DNA of 16,539 nt from the UHGV virus genome UHGV-0073462. One strand, 5' to 3'. Origin of the DNA: a virus. The notes below the pieces were generated by a model that worked only from the letters and a program-made list of their open reading frames with translations, was not told the origin of the DNA and searched no databases. This document shows positions 3,151 through 14,862 of this stretch, piece after piece. Positions within the stretch are counted from its first letter, which is position 1; the number at the start of each line of letters is the position of its first letter. Both the position numbers and the translations under genes were made by a program.

Positions 3151-3333
3151 CTACGGAATGAGAGGCTCTTCGGGTTTTGTTCCGGCTGACTGACTGGCGC
3201 TGATTTTCTCAGCGGCCCTTTTGTCAATCTGTCTGCACCAGAAATCTCTCACGACTCTGTACCCACCAGAAAGAAGATACAGCACACAAACTGCTGTACA
3301 GAAATACAATAAAATAAGCTGTAAAAATGTCAT
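3151..3333 (-). CDS. small membrane protein (60 aa), unknown function
   Basis: ATG at 3333 with strong SD GGAGGG about 5 nt upstream. N-terminal hydrophobic helix (LQLILLYFCTAVCVLYLLSGGY) followed by a charged tail. Confidence 0.5.
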   Translation of the reverse strand: MTFLQLILLYFCTAVCVLYLLSGGYRVVRDFWCRQIDKRAAEKISASQSAGTKPEEPLIP

Positions 3334-3418
3334 TATCCCTCCCAGTTATTGATATGGTGTTGACATCGTTAATACCTGTTGGTTAAAAAAGCGTCCTGCA
3401 TGTTTTGCTTTGGATGTG

Positions 3419-5547: not shown

Positions 5548-5602
5548 TTATGAATTCTGGTTAAAATCCATTCGATTATAAAAATGTATATCTCATGCTG
5601 TT

Positions 5603-5628
5603 GCCCGAACCCACTCGGGCTTTTTTTT
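5603..5628 (+). terminator. plus-strand intrinsic terminator (hairpin plus T8)
   Basis: GCCCGA-ACCCAC-TCGGGC hairpin followed by TTTTTTTT on the plus strand. Lies back-to-back with the minus-strand hairpin at 5641-5658. Confidence 0.5.
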
Positions 5629-5633
5629 GCCCA

Positions 5634-5658
5634 CAAGAAAGCCCCTCCGGAGAGGGGC
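5634..5658 (-). terminator. intrinsic terminator at the end of repeat module B
   Basis: Minus strand: GC-rich palindromic hairpin GCCCCTCTCCGGAGGGGC followed by TTTCTTG. Confidence 0.5.
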
Positions 5659-5870
5659 TAAAGCCGCGTATCTGTATCATCATGCACATGGTGCCGGGTG
5701 CCTCCCGGTGAGTTCAGCCAGGTGCCACTAAACCCGCGTCATTCTCGTTTTGATAATCAGAGATTATACCGTCACCAGTCGCCCCTCCGCTCAGGGGGAT
5801 TCACCATGCGAAATTTTTTTAACAAATGCCCAGTCTGACAGGCAACTGTCAACTTACTGAATTGTGAGCA
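5634..5870. repeat. late-leader repeat module, copy B (direct repeat of 6116-6352)
   Basis: Blocks shared with copy A at a constant offset of about 482 bp: palindromic hairpin GCCCCTCCGGAGAGGGGC, CATGGTGCCGGGTGCCTCCCGGTGAGTTCAG, GCCCCTCCGC(T/A)CAGGGGGATTCACCATGC, and TTGAC(A/T)...CTGAATTGTGAG. Minus-strand reading runs from a TTGACA -35-like hexamer to the terminator hairpin about 200 nt downstream. Confidence 0.6.
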
Positions 5871-5932: not shown

Positions 5933-6115
5933 TGGAAGGATAGCGGTCATGTGATGCCGGTTTCCCGGTAACTCAGCACCGGTATCTGAGTCAACGTTTT
6001 CTCTACTGGGTCATTTCCGATACACCTGCCTGCTGACAGGCTTTCATCACATCTGAAAATATAGCACCCTGACTGATACTGTAGTACCCAAGGTTCCAGA
6101 AACTGTGATGTATCC

Positions 6116-6352
6116 GGCACAGAAAAGCCCCTCCGGAGAGGGGCTGGAGAGTGGCGCTATGTGCCATTGCATGGTGCCGGGTGCCTCCCGGTGAGTTCAG
6201 TATCAGCACCTGAACCCGCACAGAAAGGATAAGGGTCGGTGACAAAACACCAGTTGCTGATTGCCCCTCCGCACAGGGGGATTCACCATGCCAGTTTCTT
6301 TTAACAAACTCCCCGCAAACCAGACAACAGTCAACCGCCTGAATTGTGAGGT
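6116..6352. repeat. late-leader repeat module, copy A (direct repeat of 5634-5870)
   Basis: Same conserved blocks as copy B in the same order. The TATAAT present in copy B is replaced by CTTATC here. Flanking sequence on the Q side (about 6353-6400) is still weakly similar to the inter-module spacer, so the duplicated unit is roughly 480 bp. Confidence 0.6.
6120..6144 (-). terminator. intrinsic terminator at the end of repeat module A
   Basis: Minus strand: GCCCCTCTCCGGAGGGGC hairpin followed by TTTTCTG. Confidence 0.5.
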
Positions 6353-8282: not shown

Positions 8283-8798
8283 TCACAGCACAATCTGTTT
8301 CAGTTTCTGTACCGCTTTCCCCATATCCGCCATAGCATCAACAAACTCATCAAATTTACGACTTGCCATTCCATACGCCTGGAGGATTTCCAGTTTCAGA
8401 GGATCCAGTTGCTTTTTAATTTCCGCACGATCATTAAATTTCTTCTCTGCTTCTTCCGCAGCCCTGATCAGCTCCTCAGCATGCCTGCGTAATTCATCCG
8501 GAGTAACGGTCTTTTTAATCACAACGGGTTCCTCTGTTTTTACTGGTATTTCACTATTTACTGCCTGATGTCCAAATTTAGGATGATGTAACGTTGTAGT
8601 TCTTCCATCATTCGCAACGACCAGAAGTCCACTGTCGCGGATAATGCCAATGAGTATCTCCTTATCCCTTTTATTCAGTAGACTGTACGCCTGCACTTTC
8701 TGTGATATCTGGGTCAGTGTTGCGCCTTCCGGCATTCGTTCAACAAAACGTTTAACCCTGGATAAAACTGGCTGCAGATGGGGTGGTGTAATTCTCAT
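8283..8798 (-). CDS. hypothetical protein (171 aa), possible winged-helix N-terminus and helical C-terminus
   Basis: ATG at 8798 with SD GGGAGG 8 nt upstream, overlapping the stop of the KilA-N gene. No domain recognised. Confidence 0.6.
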   Translation of the reverse strand: MRITPPHLQPVLSRVKRFVERMPEGATLTQISQKVQAYSLLNKRDKEILIGIIRDSGLLVVANDGRTTTLHHPKFGHQAVNSEIPVKTEEPVVIKKTVTPDELRRHAEELIRAAEEAEKKFNDRAEIKKQLDPLKLEILQAYGMASRKFDEFVDAMADMGKAVQKLKQIVL

Positions 8799-11650: not shown

Positions 11651-12634
11651 TCACCCCCTGAATCCTGTCGGGATCTGGCTGTAGTCCACGTTGTCGTAAC
11701 TGGCTTTGAAGTACGGGTCCTCGCGTCTGGCTGCAGATACCGCAGGAACTTCCCAGGATTCTTCGAAATGACGATCCGGACCAAAGAACGTGACAGCCTG
11801 TTTCACAAATTGTGTGCCGCTATTGCCCATCGCAGATACCCAGCCCGCGTAGCGTTTCACACCTTCCAGCATGGTTTCGGGGTTTACCCCCTCGTTCAAA
11901 CGGGCTTTCCAGGCTTTGAAGGCTGCTGATTTTGAATTGCCACCAGCACGTTTGGGATATTCCTGCCAGGCCTGTTCAAATTCCGGTGAATATTCCTGTC
12001 GGGCAGAACGCGCTGGCGCAGACGCGTCAGCGGATGCATCAATAGTGTTTTTAGTCTCCGTTGTAATCTCTGTAGTAATCTCTGTATTTGTATCAACATT
12101 CGGCGTATCCCCTGTTCCGTTATGACGTCGGGGGGTGTTCCGTTTTAACGTAATAGCTGTATCGCTGATTGCATTATTGCTGTTACTTTCTGGCGAAACA
12201 GAAGAAGGTGTGGTGATGGCCGCAATTGCCTGTGGGTTGATCCCGACAAACAAAATATTGCTGCATTTCACCCCATCGAGCATTTCCACCGTGCGTAAAT
12301 CCAGAGTAATAAACCCTGCATCGCGCAGACGCTTCAGCGCATCTGCGGTTTCCCTTTTCCCGAAACCAAACTGCTCAGCAAACGCCTGGTAGCTTCTTTG
12401 CAGTTTGTCGCCCTGAAAACGCTTGCGATATCCCAGCAACGCTCCGGTGTGCTCATCCCTGACCTCTGTCGGGCGGTACCAGTAAACGATCTCTGAAAGC
12501 AGAGCGATAGCCGTCGCATCCGGACGCCCACTGGGTAGTCGAATATATTTCCACCAGGTCGCAGGTGTAACATTGCCGGAAATATTAATTTGACCAATAG
12601 CCATAACTTCCGGTGTGGGGGCGTAACGGCTCAT
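11651..12634 (-). CDS. putative replication initiation protein (lambda O-like position; family not firmly identified)
   Basis: 327 aa. Gene contains a tandem DNA repeat encoding TEITTEITTET, reminiscent of iterons embedded in lambda O. Conserved-looking C-terminal block EFEQAWQEYPKRAGGNSKSAAFKAWKARL. Sits in the cII-to-nin interval. Family call is inference. Confidence 0.5.
   Translation of the reverse strand: MSRYAPTPEVMAIGQINISGNVTPATWWKYIRLPSGRPDATAIALLSEIVYWYRPTEVRDEHTGALLGYRKRFQGDKLQRSYQAFAEQFGFGKRETADALKRLRDAGFITLDLRTVEMLDGVKCSNILFVGINPQAIAAITTPSSVSPESNSNNAISDTAITLKRNTPRRHNGTGDTPNVDTNTEITTEITTETKNTIDASADASAPARSARQEYSPEFEQAWQEYPKRAGGNSKSAAFKAWKARLNEGVNPETMLEGVKRYAGWVSAMGNSGTQFVKQAVTFFGPDRHFEESWEVPAVSAARREDPYFKASYDNVDYSQIPTGFRG
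12063..12086. repeat. tandem 12-bp direct repeat (2 copies of GTAATCTCTGTA) inside the O-like gene; candidate iteron / origin element
   Basis: Perfect tandem copies at 12063-12074 and 12075-12086, with degenerate flanking copies (TTTGTA, CCGTT). Confidence 0.5.
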
Positions 12635-12930
12635 ACAACCTCCTTCCGCAGCATGAGAATTGTGTAGCCACGCGCAGGTTGTAGTCTGGCTTTTGCATCA
12701 ATAGTAAGCGTTGCAATTTTTCGGATATGAAGATAACCAGCTCTTTCCAGTGCCAGGGTTTCCCTGAATATCGCTTGCTTAGAACAACAGCAGAAATCAG
12801 CAAGCACCTGATGATCAATAACTCTCTCGCCTTCACCGTCTGAAGAACCCGACATCAAAACGCGCAACATAATCAGGCGCTGAATCGGGTTATCGAAAGC
12901 ACATCCGCACACAAACTGAAAACAGTTCAC
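12631..12930 (-). CDS. hypothetical protein (up to 99 aa), possible winged-helix DNA-binding protein
   Basis: GTG start at 12930 overlaps the stop of the upstream gene (GTGA); stop overlaps the O-like start (ATGA). Segment QVLADFCCCSKQAIFRETLALERAGYLHIRK looks HTH-like. Start uncertain (first ATG at 12870 has no SD). Confidence 0.4.
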   Translation of the reverse strand: MNCFQFVCGCAFDNPIQRLIMLRVLMSGSSDGEGERVIDHQVLADFCCCSKQAIFRETLALERAGYLHIRKIATLTIDAKARLQPARGYTILMLRKEVV

Positions 12931-13151
12931 GCCACACCTCCCAGACGCTTAAACATTTTTCCGGAGCAAAAGGCTATAAGCGGCATACTGATGCGGTAAT
13001 TACGGCCCAGCGGTTCACAAATCACCTTCTGACATTCACGGTCAACCAGGCTGACACGTAGAACATGCCCTGCAGGCGTGGTGTACCACTGACCAGGACG
13101 AGGACAACGGAAAGTCTGATTGGTAAACCGTTTGAAAATATTCCGGATCAT
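12927..13151 (-). CDS. hypothetical small protein (74 aa)
   Basis: ATG at 13151 overlaps the stop of the Rha gene (ATGA); basic, Cys-containing. No domain recognised. Confidence 0.45.
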   Translation of the reverse strand: MIRNIFKRFTNQTFRCPRPGQWYTTPAGHVLRVSLVDRECQKVICEPLGRNYRISMPLIAFCSGKMFKRLGGVA

Positions 13152-14308
13152 TTGCGCCCCCTTACCTCTGAAGGGTTCAGCGACAAATTTATGAGACTGG
13201 CCAGTAGCGCCGCGTCGTTGATGCGGTCATACAGACTTACAGCCAGCGGGGATTCGGCTTTTGCCAACATGGGATAAAGCTGCTGCAGCCAGACCTTGTG
13301 GATTACCGACAGGTGGGAGTAAAGCACGCTGGCGTTATCTGCGGCATCGCTCAGCGTGGATGGCTTTGAAAGCAGTTTTTCCATCTGGTTAAAGGCATTG
13401 ATGTATGCCTCTTTGAACCGGGCAGCACGTTTACCCGTGAAACCCATAGCAAGAAACGCAAAACCGTCTCGTGTGATTTGATAGCAAGGGAGCTTGCGTG
13501 TACCACCGTTCGGTTGATTTACCGAAATCGATGTCTCCGCAAAATTGCGGGCACAAAACTCTGGGGAACAATCCAGAGTGCGGATCTTTTTCAGCACATC
13601 GTCGTGACGCTTGGAGAAGGAGTTGGCAACAGCCAAAGAAGTGGTAACGGCCTGGCCGTTGTCAATGGTGATTTCAGGTTGAGTGAGGGCTGGGTTCGTA
13701 GCCATGATGGCAGCCTCCGTTGACAGTGAAAAACTTCCACCACCGGAAACGCCAATTTCACTGGTGGTGAACTGGACGGGGTTGGCGTAACCGGCGTCAA
13801 CGGAGACCGGCGCACCTTTCGGTGCCCCCGCCCAGCCCACCATAATCTGGATGTGAGCAAATGCGGACGATAAAAAAGACGCTGGCGCGTCATACATCGC
13901 CGTTGACAATTTCAGGACGCCAATCCCGGCACCCGCTTTATAAGGTGCCTGAACAGTGTAACGTCCCGGAATGGCAGAATCAATATGCTGGTGGTCCTTC
14001 ACACTCAACAAAATCACGCCTGAATTTCCACAAAGGACTAAAGCACTCATGCGGGTAGTCTTTGCGAAGATAGATAACGCGCTGTGTTTCTGGCTCCCAA
14101 CGAATAACATGGACATAAAGCCCTCTTCCGTCACGAAACCAGCGGTTAAGTTCCTGCACAACTCGCCCCCCACAGTCAGGTAAAGTTCTCTGTGGTTACT
14201 TACAGCCAGGTGATTTGGTAATCTGCATTCATGCCGTAACAACAGGTGTTCAGCGACGCTGACCACCAGCTGTTGCGACAAACGGTTATTTGCCGTTAAA
14301 CTATTCAT
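13148..14308 (-). CDS. Rha-domain phage regulatory protein with a roughly 200-aa N-terminal extension of unknown nature
   Basis: Residues about 205-315 (MATNPALTQPEITIDNGQAVTTSLAVANSFSKRHDDVLKKIRTL...YQITRDGFAFLAMGFTGKRAARFKEAYINAFNQME) match the Rha (Phage_pRha) domain. The ORF stays open about 600 bp upstream to an ATG at 14308 that overlaps the CII-like stop (ATGA). No other long ORF covers 13750-14308. Confidence 0.6.
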   Translation of the reverse strand: MNSLTANNRLSQQLVVSVAEHLLLRHECRLPNHLAVSNHRELYLTVGGELCRNLTAGFVTEEGFMSMLFVGSQKHSALSIFAKTTRMSALVLCGNSGVILLSVKDHQHIDSAIPGRYTVQAPYKAGAGIGVLKLSTAMYDAPASFLSSAFAHIQIMVGWAGAPKGAPVSVDAGYANPVQFTTSEIGVSGGGSFSLSTEAAIMATNPALTQPEITIDNGQAVTTSLAVANSFSKRHDDVLKKIRTLDCSPEFCARNFAETSISVNQPNGGTRKLPCYQITRDGFAFLAMGFTGKRAARFKEAYINAFNQMEKLLSKPSTLSDAADNASVLYSHLSVIHKVWLQQLYPMLAKAESPLAVSLYDRINDAALLASLINLSLNPSEVRGRK

Positions 14309-14862
14309 GCGTTAGTTTCTCCACAACCAGAAGCAATCGACGCCACGACGCCCGGAGCTGCACACTCGCGGGCGTTACTATTTTCTGGAGCGCAAAAGAT
14401 TTTGTAGACCAGTGCTGCATGCTCCTGGAGCTTCGAAATTGAAAGATACAGTTCGTCGTTAATTGCTGTCTTCTCATGCGGTTCCACTACACCGTCTTCG
14501 ATTGCTGAACGAATCTGTCTGGAATAACTGCCGATCTGTTCAATGACTTCCAGCAGGCGCTGGTTTATATCGGCGTTCTCTACTGCCTCAATTTCAGGAA
14601 GCGATACGAACACCCCACCAGCAGACTGTGCGACAGCATCCGCAATGTAGTGAGTGCCAGCCGCACGCTGTAAAACCATTGCCCATCCCAGCGGGAAAAT
14701 CTGATCGCCATCTGCACGAAGGCGGTTGAATAAAGCGTTCTCTGTTACATCCAGCCAGTCAGCAGCTTCAGCGTACCCCCCCGGCAACGCTGCGATAGTT
14801 TTTCTGACAGCTTTCACGTACCACTCAGGCTGTTTTTCTACTTTCCAGTGATGCTTACCCAC
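14305..14862 (-). CDS. putative CII-like early regulatory protein (185 aa), family assignment tentative
   Basis: GTG start at 14862 with strong SD AGGAGGT 5 nt upstream, overlapping the end of cro. Position directly after cro is that of cII-type regulators; sequence has a helical DNA-binding-like N-terminus. Function is inferred from position. Confidence 0.5.
   Translation of the reverse strand: MGKHHWKVEKQPEWYVKAVRKTIAALPGGYAEAADWLDVTENALFNRLRADGDQIFPLGWAMVLQRAAGTHYIADAVAQSAGGVFVSLPEIEAVENADINQRLLEVIEQIGSYSRQIRSAIEDGVVEPHEKTAINDELYLSISKLQEHAALVYKIFCAPENSNARECAAPGVVASIASGCGETNA

Follow-up and report, generated by a model that had tools for sequence, protein, structure and literature searches.

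In the satellite phage P4, whose immunity region runs seqA - CI RNA - seqB/seqC, the CI RNA acts mainly via premature transcription termination of the replication operon. In phages P1 and P7, the immI region is arranged in the order a1 b1 - c4 - a2 b2 - icd - ant, and the mechanism of c4 has been summarised elsewhere (PMC12197685). Moreover, Gifsy-1 of Salmonella carries the cassette PisrK-isrK-orf45-anrP, with a leaky terminator and a processed RNA of about 80 nt, STnc1160, which has been likened to P4 CI (Hershko-Shalev et al. 2016, PMC4825925).

Here, we compare these systems with a locus of the virus genome UHGV-0073462, using "the window" for the whole 16,539-nucleotide stretch of DNA analyzed. 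An open reading frame of 386 codons with an ATG start was confirmed on its minus strand (13148..14308 (-), 386 aa). The original prediction had described it as a Rha-domain protein with a long N-terminal extension, its ATG overlapping the stop codon of a CII-like gene. The ORF is indeed present in the ORF listing, and the overlap was read as ATGA, formed by the ATG of the long frame (14308-14306) and the TGA of the upstream gene (14307-14305), which belongs to Pfam Phage_CP76 / CII and is named YmfL. The Rha domain does lie far from the N-terminus (Pfam aa 222-311, E 1e-27; TIGR02681 aa 213-315) and, from the coordinates of the domain and of an internal Met, it follows that an open frame of about 200 codons precedes it; such a frame is also found in relatives at 78-88% nucleotide identity. 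Sequenced E. coli prophages match the feature at 99.9% identity, and in a genome of that identity PGAP annotates only a 300-aa version of the long ORF, together with a separate DUF4222 gene. Start-site annotation is thereby discordant between pipelines, with 386 aa in some records and 300 aa in another. Overall, we hold with high confidence that an RNA cassette of the P1 immI / P4 immunity / Gifsy-1 isrK type lies directly before a Rha-type (antirepressor-like) gene, and the long frame is best described through its parts, as follows:

14305..14862, minus strand: upstream CII-like gene YmfL (Phage_CP76 family), 185 aa; Pfam PF06892, E 5.5e-15; PGAP name ymfL
13148..14308, minus strand: long open frame, a composite of several parts and not a single gene (ORF listing, PGAP and substitution pattern per segment)
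14160..14304, minus strand: spacer from the ymfL stop to the DUF4222 start; open in the long frame, without positive coding evidence, left blank by PGAP
13980..14159, minus strand: gene for a small DUF4222 protein, 59 aa, GTG start, in a frame other than that of the long ORF; Pfam PF13973 E 9.4e-14; PGAP WP_001379286.1
13955..13983, minus strand: putative sigma-70 promoter, TTGATT, 17 nt, TACACT, read from the sequence
13872..13948, minus strand: isrK-like / P4 seqA-like sRNA; Rfam RF01394, 62.2 bits, E 2e-12 (gathering score 50)
13923-13917, minus strand: C4 target a1 in the isrK-like RNA; sequence complementarity and covariation with C4
13907-13900, minus strand: C4 target b1 in the isrK-like RNA; sequence complementarity and covariation with C4
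13891-13872, minus strand: intrinsic terminator of the isrK-like RNA, with stem GACGCGCCAGCGTC at 13891-13878 and a U6 run at 13877-13872
13760..13847, minus strand: C4 / P4 CI-like antisense RNA; Rfam RF01695, 81.4 bits, E 5e-15 (gathering score 45), full length over model positions 1-87
13843-13841, minus strand: AUG embedded in the C4 5' end, codon 156 of the long frame
13806-13795, minus strand: C4 b' loop of 12 nt, UCUCCGUUGACG
13788-13782, minus strand: C4 a' junction, ACGCCAA, a single-stranded element
13714..13755, minus strand: target leader with a2, GGTGGTG box, b2 and Shine-Dalgarno sequence; coordinates from sequence, three-way allele covariation
13755-13749, minus strand: a2, UUGGCGU, 7-nt pairing with a' (13788-13782)
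13744-13738, minus strand: conserved GGTGGTG box
13724-13715, minus strand: b2, GUCAACGGAG, 10-nt pairing with b' (13806-13795), overlapping the GGAGG Shine-Dalgarno sequence (13718-13714)
13148..13705, minus strand: Rha-family regulator and probable antirepressor, 185 aa plus stop, most likely the true CDS (Pfam, TIGR02681, substitutions, Shine-Dalgarno sequence)

The order of the elements is the same in the window and in P1/P7 immI. As in those phages, a C4-family RNA (RF01695) with single-stranded a' and b' elements has complementary boxes on either side of it, the downstream b box covering the ribosome-binding site of the gene that follows. The allele specificity of a and b in the window also parallels P1/P7 heteroimmunity, and the cargo is of the antirepressor class in both cases. 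Unlike P1 immI, however, the window has no separate icd ORF and b2 lies directly on the Rha Shine-Dalgarno sequence, an Icd-like cargo being present only at another, P4-like locus (L006). In addition, the a1/b1 region is isrK-like and has an intrinsic terminator of its own, and the c4-a1b1 family (RF03163) gives only a weak, overlapping match of 21.6 bits on the isrK-like RNA, which is under the threshold. A further difference from P1 is that the cassette occupies a lambdoid early-right operon, flanked by the cII-like and the replication genes.

Gifsy-1 and the window share a 77-nt isrK RNA closed by a leaky intrinsic terminator, followed about 25 nt on by a C4-like RNA (STnc1160 / orf45'), beyond which lies an antirepressor-like gene; they also have in common an AUG at about +107 and the complementarity of IsrK to the downstream RNA. 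In Gifsy-1, the orf45 stop and the anrP start overlap as AUGA; the frame in the window runs into Rha without a stop, as the authors of that study noted for S. dysenteriae, and the AUGA form was found in only one of 99 modules (L127). The genomic position differs as well, as the Gifsy-1 cassette adjoins antQ. Since the Gifsy-1 locus was not found when the Rfam isrK consensus was searched against the phage collection, this comparison rests on the coordinates given in PMC4825925.

With regard to P4, the Rfam C4 and isrK models fall on the CI RNA and seqA regions, in the order and on the strand seen in the window, and Pfam Ash matches the historical 'cI protein' ORF where this overlies the CI RNA, as its match in the window overlies the RNA leader. 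Replication genes are found downstream of the cassette in both. The seqA-to-CI spacing is about 107 nt in P4 as compared to 24 nt in the window, and in the P4 record the cassette is followed by the annotated cI gene product ORF and then by epsilon, where the window has the Rha gene. Altogether, the cassette is of a known type (P1 immI / P4 / Gifsy-1 IsrK), a standard representative of an RNA-immunity system that has already been described.

We then focused on the C4 RNA and its targets. The minimum-energy fold of C4 has the shape of the Rfam family, with a long closing stem and two hairpins (-52.2 kcal/mol, z = -5.07), and its 3' end, CACCACCA, forms a tRNA-like end of the stem. Helices 1-3 were paired at 95-100% among 88 sequences, with 13 pairs changed on both sides. 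Regarding the pairing with the targets, 92.2% of the cells were paired in the 88-sequence alignment, against 76.7% in shuffles (none of 500 reached 92.2%), and only 34-47% when the partners were slid; compensatory changes were observed in 8 of the 10 b'-b2 pairs and in all 5 core a'-a2 pairs.

The alleles follow the same pattern. Close relatives have six b alleles and two a alleles, which change in step at b1/b'/b2 and at a1/a'/a2, and a set of 121 unique modules contains 74 b' alleles and 28 a' alleles, co-varying at all three places in many phages and species. In that set, the longest b'-b2 complement had a median of 9 nt in cognate and of 4 nt in non-cognate pairings. A b'-b2 complement of at least 7 nt was present in 86% of cognate versus 5.7% of non-cognate pairings, and a b'-b1 complement of at least 7 nt in 79% of modules (cognate) versus 4.9% of non-cognate pairings.

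The isrK-like RNA is closed by a Rho-independent terminator (13891-13872), and the isrK and C4 pair was detected with Rfam in 14 of 14 comparison loci. When folded alone, the isrK-like RNA (z = -1.2 versus shuffles) and the a2/b2 leader (z = -1.5) were not significant; both draw their support from Rfam and covariation. Upstream, the putative promoter ends 6 nt before the isrK +1, its last hexamer base being -7, and an alignment across diverse phages shows that its position and its TTGA and TA...T cores are conserved. A sigma-70 promoter at 13983-13955 may drive the RNA cassette; we treat it as putative because the sigma-70 consensus scan, in which it has 8/12 consensus matches, did not report it.

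To place the start of the Rha gene, several observations can be combined. The internal Met is codon 202 (ATG 13705-13703), with the Shine-Dalgarno sequence GGAGG (13718-13714) located 8 nt upstream, and in the resulting 185-aa form the Rha domain is N-terminal (Pfam PF09669 aa 21-110, TIGR02681 aa 12-114). The Rha protein of ArgO145 aligns with this form residue 1 to residue 1, from MAT..., with 53% identity, and the frame of ArgO145 rha is closed 8 codons upstream of its start. In the window, the Rha ATG is found 9 nt past the end of b2 and Rha is the first ORF after it. Irrespective of the cargo, 38-62 nt separate the C4 3' end from the gene ATG, with only a few modules falling outside 49-62 nt, and in most modules about 10 nt remain between the end of b2 and this ATG; at other loci, Ant, Bro-N, ORF6N, P22_AR and P4-epsilon-type genes follow the same leader. 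An ATG occupies the corresponding place in the majority of modules, and the strong Shine-Dalgarno sequence and ATG (13705) are kept in aligned relatives. In mosaic relatives, homology stops at nt 611-628 of the long ORF, approximately 10-25 nt past the ATG (nt 604). Moreover, the in-phase frame is closed 2-37 codons before the ATG in 54 of 99 modules, all distant phages included, and in the distant phages the equivalent region is an intergenic stretch without annotation, ahead of Ant, Rha or Bro-N genes.

The substitution patterns give a similar picture. In three comparisons, substitutions by codon position were third-position-biased in the Rha segment (29/20/66, 23/16/53 and 35/29/63) and flat in the leader, nt 330-603 of the long ORF (34/36/39, 30/30/38 and 13/15/14), and codon periodicity was confined to the DUF4222 frame and to the part downstream of 13705. 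The GC1/2/3 values are flat in the leader (0.57/0.58/0.56) as compared to Rha (0.54/0.43/0.59). The codon-usage log-likelihood of the long frame, trained on 1172 codons from the other genes of the window, did not discriminate the leader (0.19) from real genes (Rha, 0.12), probably because the leader frame is stop-free and GC-rich and the training set is small. On these sequence comparisons, translation of Rha most likely starts at the internal Met (13705); codons 1-201 would most likely be an open frame without a protein function of its own, and Rha a protein of 185 aa from M202. From its context, Rha is a probable antirepressor / lysis-lysogeny regulator.

Part of the extension could nevertheless be translated, if ribosomes also started at the AUG embedded in C4 (13843-13841), the equivalent of the first AUG of orf45. 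The same sequence would then serve as RNA regulator and coding sequence at once, and, as the frame from this AUG is fused in frame with Rha, ribosomes would yield a 231-aa Rha isoform and/or couple translation into Rha through melting of a2/b2. We regard such a partial extension or uORF coupling as unlikely. In Gifsy-1, the first AUG of orf45 is at +107, tagging shows that orf45 is translated and it is required for anrP translation, and an orf45-anrP fusion was noted in S. dysenteriae (PMC4825925); as orf45 is translated there through the C4-equivalent RNA, ribosomes may to some extent pass through part of the extension. The AUG of the window, at +106 relative to the isrK start, shares its frame with Rha and no stop intervenes, and the frame reading it, that of Ash, is open over the module in 23/74 cases at the species level, versus 5/74 and 3/74 for the other frames. 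The invariance of this AUG in the species-level set is partly circular, because the search pattern for that set included ATGGTGGG. However, no Shine-Dalgarno sequence precedes 13843, the stretch after it lacks codon periodicity, and the ORF it opens is conserved across species neither in length (3, 8, 15, 27, 32, 37 ... codons) nor in its end, while the strong Shine-Dalgarno sequence and ATG at 13705 are the conserved ones in aligned relatives.

A related possibility concerns the SfV-like clade, in which the approximately 140 nt from 13843 to the Rha ATG might be dual-use, serving as C4 and a2/b2 targets and coding for an extended Rha. We assign this a low probability; the extended protein would have 231 aa, or 386 aa via ATGA coupling from ymfL. 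Ribosome transit would in that case unfold C4 and the duplex occluding the Shine-Dalgarno sequence, making C4 biogenesis and Rha translation mutually exclusive. Dual use would explain why the long frame is open in 26/26 close relatives, ST64B and mEp460 included, although 36-40% of the leader positions in these two are not those of the window, with indels of 3 and 6 nt only.

That the annotated protein is a genuine Ash-Rha fusion, of 386 aa or of the 300 aa given by PGAP, translated as annotated in SfV-like phages and with Ash as a real Bro-network protein domain holding an embedded RNA gene, appears highly improbable. Pfam PF10554 Phage_ASH does match the long ORF at aa 117-212 (71.6 bits, cut-off 26, E 9e-20), the long ORF is annotated in several phage records, Rha/Ash proteins have been treated as real in published work (PMC8951638) and the P4 CI RNA has been described as inside a Bro-network gene (PMC10111431). 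In addition, the frame is open in close relatives and the ATGA overlap with ymfL is typical of translational coupling. However, the Ash footprint coincides with the conserved RNA module and the first codons of the cargo gene, and its substitution pattern is flat. Stops interrupt the Ash frame in 51 of the 74 species-level modules, and in all six distant phage modules with intact a/b RNA pairing. The long ORF also contains a putative promoter and an intrinsic terminator, and the pipelines disagree on where it starts. The evidence indicates that the Pfam Ash signature arises from conceptually translating the isrK/C4 RNA leader; as the matched stretch behaves as RNA and not as protein, the ORF of the window was not filed as a Phage_ASH domain member.

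The DUF4222 gene, which overlaps the long ORF in another frame, also stands against a fusion protein. When this segment was compared with ST64B, substitutions were 3/14/4 in the numbering of the long frame, with the maximum at the third position of DUF4222 itself, and amino-acid identity was 90% in its own frame versus 71% in the long frame; judged by these substitutions, selection in the segment acts on the DUF4222 frame. For the spacer (long-ORF nt 1-149, 14308-14160), the comparison with ST64B was ambiguous, with 33 substitutions distributed as 7/12/14 per codon position and a 6-nt gap.

The original prediction had seen no recognisable motif in the N-terminal region, which the Phage_ASH match contradicts, and had offered a novel fused domain or about 600 bp of in-frame read-through. 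The absence of codon periodicity, DUF4222 in another frame, two Rfam RNAs and stops in most distant modules all speak against a novel domain. The read-through proposal was essentially right, but the DNA is not inert, as it holds an RNA regulatory cassette and a small gene. In substance, both observations named beforehand as contradicting a fused domain were made: orthologs with a closed frame begin at the position matching the internal Met and have non-coding DNA before it, and there is a break at about residue 202, visible in GC1/2/3 and in substitution periodicity; from the proposed codon-usage/GC3 profile, the break came from GC1/2/3, while the codon-usage likelihood did not separate leader from genes. 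Structure prediction of the 386-aa ORF (AlphaFold2, single sequence) was uninformative either way, with a mean pLDDT of 34 and values below 50 in every segment, the genuine Rha domain included.

Mobile-element insertion and a frameshifted pseudogene were rejected as origins of the extension, the region being syntenic and intact in hundreds of genomes. Separately, the Edwardsiella-type loci L176 and L202, with very long upstream frames, first seemed to favour a genuine long protein; apart from a short common stretch at the very start, there is mostly no relationship between their upstream parts, and these frames look like shadow ORFs.

Coming back to an RNA cassette preceding a 185-aa Rha, its functioning can be proposed by analogy with P1 c4, P4 CI and Gifsy-1 IsrK/STnc1160. 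The cassette would be transcribed from a constitutive promoter at approximately 13983-13955 and by read-through from the early operon, with the isrK terminator ending most transcripts. Read-through transcripts would be processed, probably by RNase P at the tRNA-like ...CACCACCA stem, giving a stable C4 RNA. Pairing of C4 with a2/b2 would hide the Rha ribosome-binding site and may, by polarity, also halt transcription before the downstream replication genes. The outcome would be a sequence-specific second immunity, in which the antirepressor is off in the lysogen, and the isrK RNA bearing a1/b1 could compete for C4 and turn Rha on.

For the window itself these results have little consequence, and their practical value lies in annotation. 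Hundreds of E. coli genomes carry annotations of 'Rha/Ash' fusions and 'ash family proteins', and the Stx-phage literature treats Rha/Ash regions as domains of unknown function. If the leader is read as RNA, a fixed ATG approximately 10 nt after b2 is the start of the cargo genes, be they Rha, Ant, Bro-N, Icd-like or others. Moreover, SfV-like and Stx-related prophages would be predicted to carry an RNA-based, allele-specific second immunity, for which 74 b alleles were seen, and which may gate the antirepressor and the downstream replication genes.

A 386-codon ORF is listed at 13148..14308 on the minus strand of the window, and its ATG (14308-14306) shares bases, as ATGA, with the stop codon (TGA) of a 185-aa gene lying upstream, a Phage_CP76/CII family member in Pfam that PGAP names YmfL. 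The long ORF and its overlap with a CII-like gene are thus present as originally predicted, on a strand then left unstated. In Pfam, the Rha domain covers aa 222-311 (E 1e-27), and Phage_ASH matches aa 117-212 (E 9e-20), within the N-terminal region previously described as lacking any motif. Codon 202 is an internal ATG (13705-13703), with GGAGG 8 nt 5' of it. The open frame is real, but its N-terminal "extension" does not represent a new protein domain, one of the readings first offered for it: it is made up of a spacer, a DUF4222 gene read in a different frame, and an isrK/C4 RNA immunity cassette of known type. The 185-aa Rha gene most likely begins at 13705, and its ribosome-binding site is covered by the b2 target of the cassette.

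An Rfam scan run at curated thresholds detected two RNA genes inside codons 120-183, on the same strand as the long ORF. These RNAs, the C4 pairing elements (a' and b'), their upstream copies (a1 and b1) and targets before Rha (a2 and b2), and the DUF4222 gene are as follows:

13980-14159, minus strand: ORF of the 59-aa DUF4222 protein, in a frame different from the long ORF (Pfam E 9.4e-14)
13948-13872, minus strand: isrK (RF01394), Rfam 62.2 bits
13923-13917, minus strand: a1, the same box as a2, inside the isrK-like RNA
13907-13900, minus strand: b1, the same box as b2, inside the isrK-like RNA
13847-13760, minus strand: C4 antisense RNA (RF01695), Rfam 81.4 bits
13806-13795, minus strand: b', the 12-nt loop of C4, UCUCCGUUGACG, with a 10-nt complement to b2
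13788-13782, minus strand: a', at the C4 junction, ACGCCAA, complementary to a2
13755-13749, minus strand: a2, UUGGCGU, complementary to a'
13724-13715, minus strand: b2, GUCAACGGAG, overlapping the GGAGG at 13718-13714

The isrK-like RNA, over which a c4-a1b1 match was sub-threshold in Rfam, is closed by an intrinsic terminator (stem 13891-13878 and U6), while C4 folds into the family structure (-52.2 kcal/mol, z = -5.07). The layout, a1 b1 - c4 - a2 b2 - gene, is that of P1 immI. Just 3' of a2 lies a nearly invariant GGTGGTG box (13738-13744, minus strand; alignment A2 columns ~117-123), complementary to the CACCACC of the 3' strand of the C4 closing stem (13762-13769, minus strand), so that an alternative hairpin could form with a2 in its loop, rivaling the C4 stem; this may resemble alternative structures A and B of Gifsy-1.

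Existing annotations differ over the same region. In an E. coli chromosome 99.9% identical to the window, PGAP calls ymfL, the DUF4222 gene and a 300-aa "Rha" from long-frame codon 87, leaving the first 149 nt of the long ORF without annotation, whereas several phage records carry the full long ORF; pipelines therefore disagree on the N-terminus. Compared with the close relative ST64B, the DUF4222 segment shows 90% amino acid identity in its own frame and 71% in the long frame.

The window was compared with three diverged relatives, and substitutions were binned by long-frame codon position (1/2/3; nt 1 of the long ORF being 14308). The Rha part (nt 604-1161) is coding, with 29/20/66, 23/16/53 and 35/29/63, while the RNA leader (nt 330-603) is flat and not coding, with 34/36/39, 30/30/38 and 13/15/14. 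Against ST64B, the DUF4222 segment gave 3/14/4, its peak being DUF4222's own third position, and nt 1-149 gave an ambiguous 7/12/14, plus a 6-nt gap. The GC profile by codon position, proposed as a check in the original prediction, does change between segments, from flat in the leader (0.57/0.58/0.56) to gene-like in Rha (0.54/0.43/0.59). A codon-usage likelihood score did not tell the leader and real genes apart, and single-sequence AlphaFold2 returned pLDDT <50 at essentially every residue, the genuine Rha domain included.

Regarding where Rha starts, in distant phages (Stx2a_WGPS8, phage 2851, ArgO145, phiV10, a Klebsiella phage and APSE-2) the isrK and C4 pair lies in unannotated intergenic DNA directly 5' of an antirepressor-type gene, and the frame of that gene, followed upstream, closes 4-10 codons before its ATG. 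ArgO145 Rha, annotated from the equivalent ATG, aligns with the window protein read from M202 residue 1 on residue 1 (MATNPALTQPEITI... vs MATIPVLSQPEITI...; 53% identity, E 3e-43). Hence, a start at the internal Met with non-coding DNA upstream, which had been named as an outcome to look for among orthologs, is what these phages display; it also puts the Rha domain at the N-terminus, its usual place. In the 99 unique modules whose downstream (cargo) gene could be identified, the cargo ATG lies 38-62 nt past the C4 3' end (49-62 nt except in a few) and, in most, ~10 nt from the end of b2; in 54 of the 99, the in-phase frame closes 2-37 codons before this ATG. In mosaic relatives, homology to the window stops at long-ORF nt 611-628, ~10-25 nt past the ATG (nt 604), and the cargo is instead a 77-aa protein (SfV-type loci), another Rha or an Icd-like protein. 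Closed upstream frames, aligned starts and swapped cargo therefore indicate that the leader is a portable cassette, and that cargo starts at the internal Met.

For 74 proteins encoded downstream of the module (that of the window and 73 from related loci), Pfam matches comprise Rha (7), Bro-N (6), ORF6N (5), P4-epsilon-type "Derepression" (4), P22_AR_C (3) and SymE (2); ~45 had no Pfam match, a recurrent ~150-aa class among them. Within the species-level loci (L097-L216), a SymE-type type I toxin directly follows the C4 module in two, and a P4-epsilon-like derepression protein in four. In SfV-type phages, the 77-aa protein (MATVPALTRLNDEDLHKL...) replaces Rha after the same leader (L005, 3104-3337; SfV itself, L095, 1786-2019, the latter being orf37, "immunity region"); it has no match in NCBIfam, and only its first ~8 codons are in common with the window Rha.

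The pairing boxes also covary. Close relatives carry six b alleles and two a alleles, each shifting in step at all three sites. A species-level search of one-genome-per-species contigs, with a DNA pattern of the C4 core that took no account of reading frame, yielded 120 loci, with the whole module in 99 of 121 matches. In the 121 unique modules, b' loops come in 74 distinct forms and a' in 28 alleles; the median length of the longest b'-b2 complement is 9 nt in cognate and 4 nt in non-cognate combinations, complements of at least 7 nt occurring in 86% vs 5.7% for b'-b2 and in 79% vs 4.9% for b'-b1, and a1 and a2 complements are 7 nt almost everywhere. In an 88-sequence alignment, 92.2% of cells were paired against 76.7% in shuffles (0/500 as high), falling to 34-47% with slid partners, and both sides had changed in 8/10 b'-b2 pairs and 5/5 core a'-a2 pairs. 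At the sequence level, a/b pairing is supported as an evolutionarily maintained feature. Separately, E. coli AVS0753 (L007) carries complete isrK and C4 modules in tandem (2539-2727 and 3195-3383), each followed by a Rha-like ORF and with different alleles (first, a TTGGCGT and b GTCAACGG; second, a GTGGAAA and b TCAACATAG), which look like stacked, independently addressed RNA immunities.

Beyond the anatomy of the elements and their covariation, which were observed directly, we infer a switch by analogy with P1 c4 (summarized in PMC12197685), P4 CI and Gifsy-1 IsrK. A putative promoter at ~13983-13955 (TTGATT, 17 nt, TACACT), conserved in position and not reported by the promoter scan of the window, would drive cassette transcription, with early-operon read-through as a further source. 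Most transcripts would stop at the isrK terminator, and those passing it would be processed to C4 RNA, which would bind a2/b2 and block the Rha ribosome-binding site, possibly also causing polarity on downstream replication genes. Competition for C4 by isrK RNA, through a1/b1, would then activate Rha. In Gifsy-1, the corresponding ~80-nt RNA (STnc1160) and a leaky terminator have been observed, and IsrK in trans raised antirepressor translation 140-fold (PMC4825925). Systems of this kind are already known, and the window copy is both recognized by the curated Rfam models and nearly identical to a large number of sequenced prophages.

The long frame is nevertheless open in 26/26 close relatives, although 36-40% of leader positions in ST64B and mEp460 differ from the window; the indels are 3 and 6 nt. 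Moreover, the frame of the C4 AUG is open in 23/74 species-level modules, against 5/74 and 3/74 for the other two, an excess that is probably in part compositional, as conserved bases may put stops in the other frames. Gifsy-1 orf45, starting from an AUG at +107, is translated and required for anrP translation (PMC4825925); the equivalent AUG of the window lies at +106 (13843), in a frame fused to Rha, so that a 231-aa Rha isoform, or a coupling role, is conceivable. We consider it improbable, however: the AUG has no preceding SD, the stretch that it opens lacks codon periodicity, and ORFs from the C4 AUG conserve neither length nor end across species, while the invariance of that AUG among the species-level modules is in part circular, the AUG having been included in the search pattern. 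Two Edwardsiella-type loci have very long open frames upstream of the module, but these look like shadow ORFs of largely unrelated sequence and were set aside.

Elsewhere in the window, three ORFs lie 3' of Rha on the minus strand (11651-12634, 12631-12930 and 12927-13151; 327, 99 and 74 aa), with no Pfam match; relatives have replication protein O annotated at the equivalent place, and the 99.9% identical E. coli genome has DNA matching the 327-aa ORF annotated only as a partial pseudogene. At Rfam gathering level, a match to AsxR, the anti-Stx2 sRNA (5573-5625, plus strand; 63 bits, exactly at threshold), and two STnc100 copies (5629-5838 and 6115-6320, minus strand; 164 and 141 bits) suggest a Stx-phage-like sRNA cluster.

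Finally, the Phage_ASH match has a counterpart in phage P4, where this Pfam family matches aa 22-85 of the ORF historically named "cI gene product (AA 1-137)", exactly where the CI RNA (Rfam C4 match, 8420-8507) is located, with isrK/seqA upstream at 8615-8692. The regions concerned are 13709-13960 in the window and 8330-8521 in P4 (L096), both on the minus strand. The Ash-translation frame contains stops in 51/74 species-level modules and 6/6 distant phage modules, in which the RNA pairing elements are intact. Our conclusion is that the signature called Ash is the conserved RNA leader in conceptual translation; both PF10554 ("Ash protein family") and the NCBI "ash family protein" appear to be built on the translated isrK/C4 (P4 seqA/CI) leader. 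Nevertheless, the P4 RefSeq record still carries a 137-aa "transcriptional repressor" CDS over the CI RNA region, "Rha/Ash" proteins of Stx phages are still described as fused domains whose function is unknown (PMC8951638), and PF10554 has been employed as a P4 epsilon profile (PMC8628076), when epsilon in fact matches another family, PF25738, and not Phage_ASH. As a by-product, this analysis thus yields evidence that "Ash", a protein annotation in wide use, is translated RNA.
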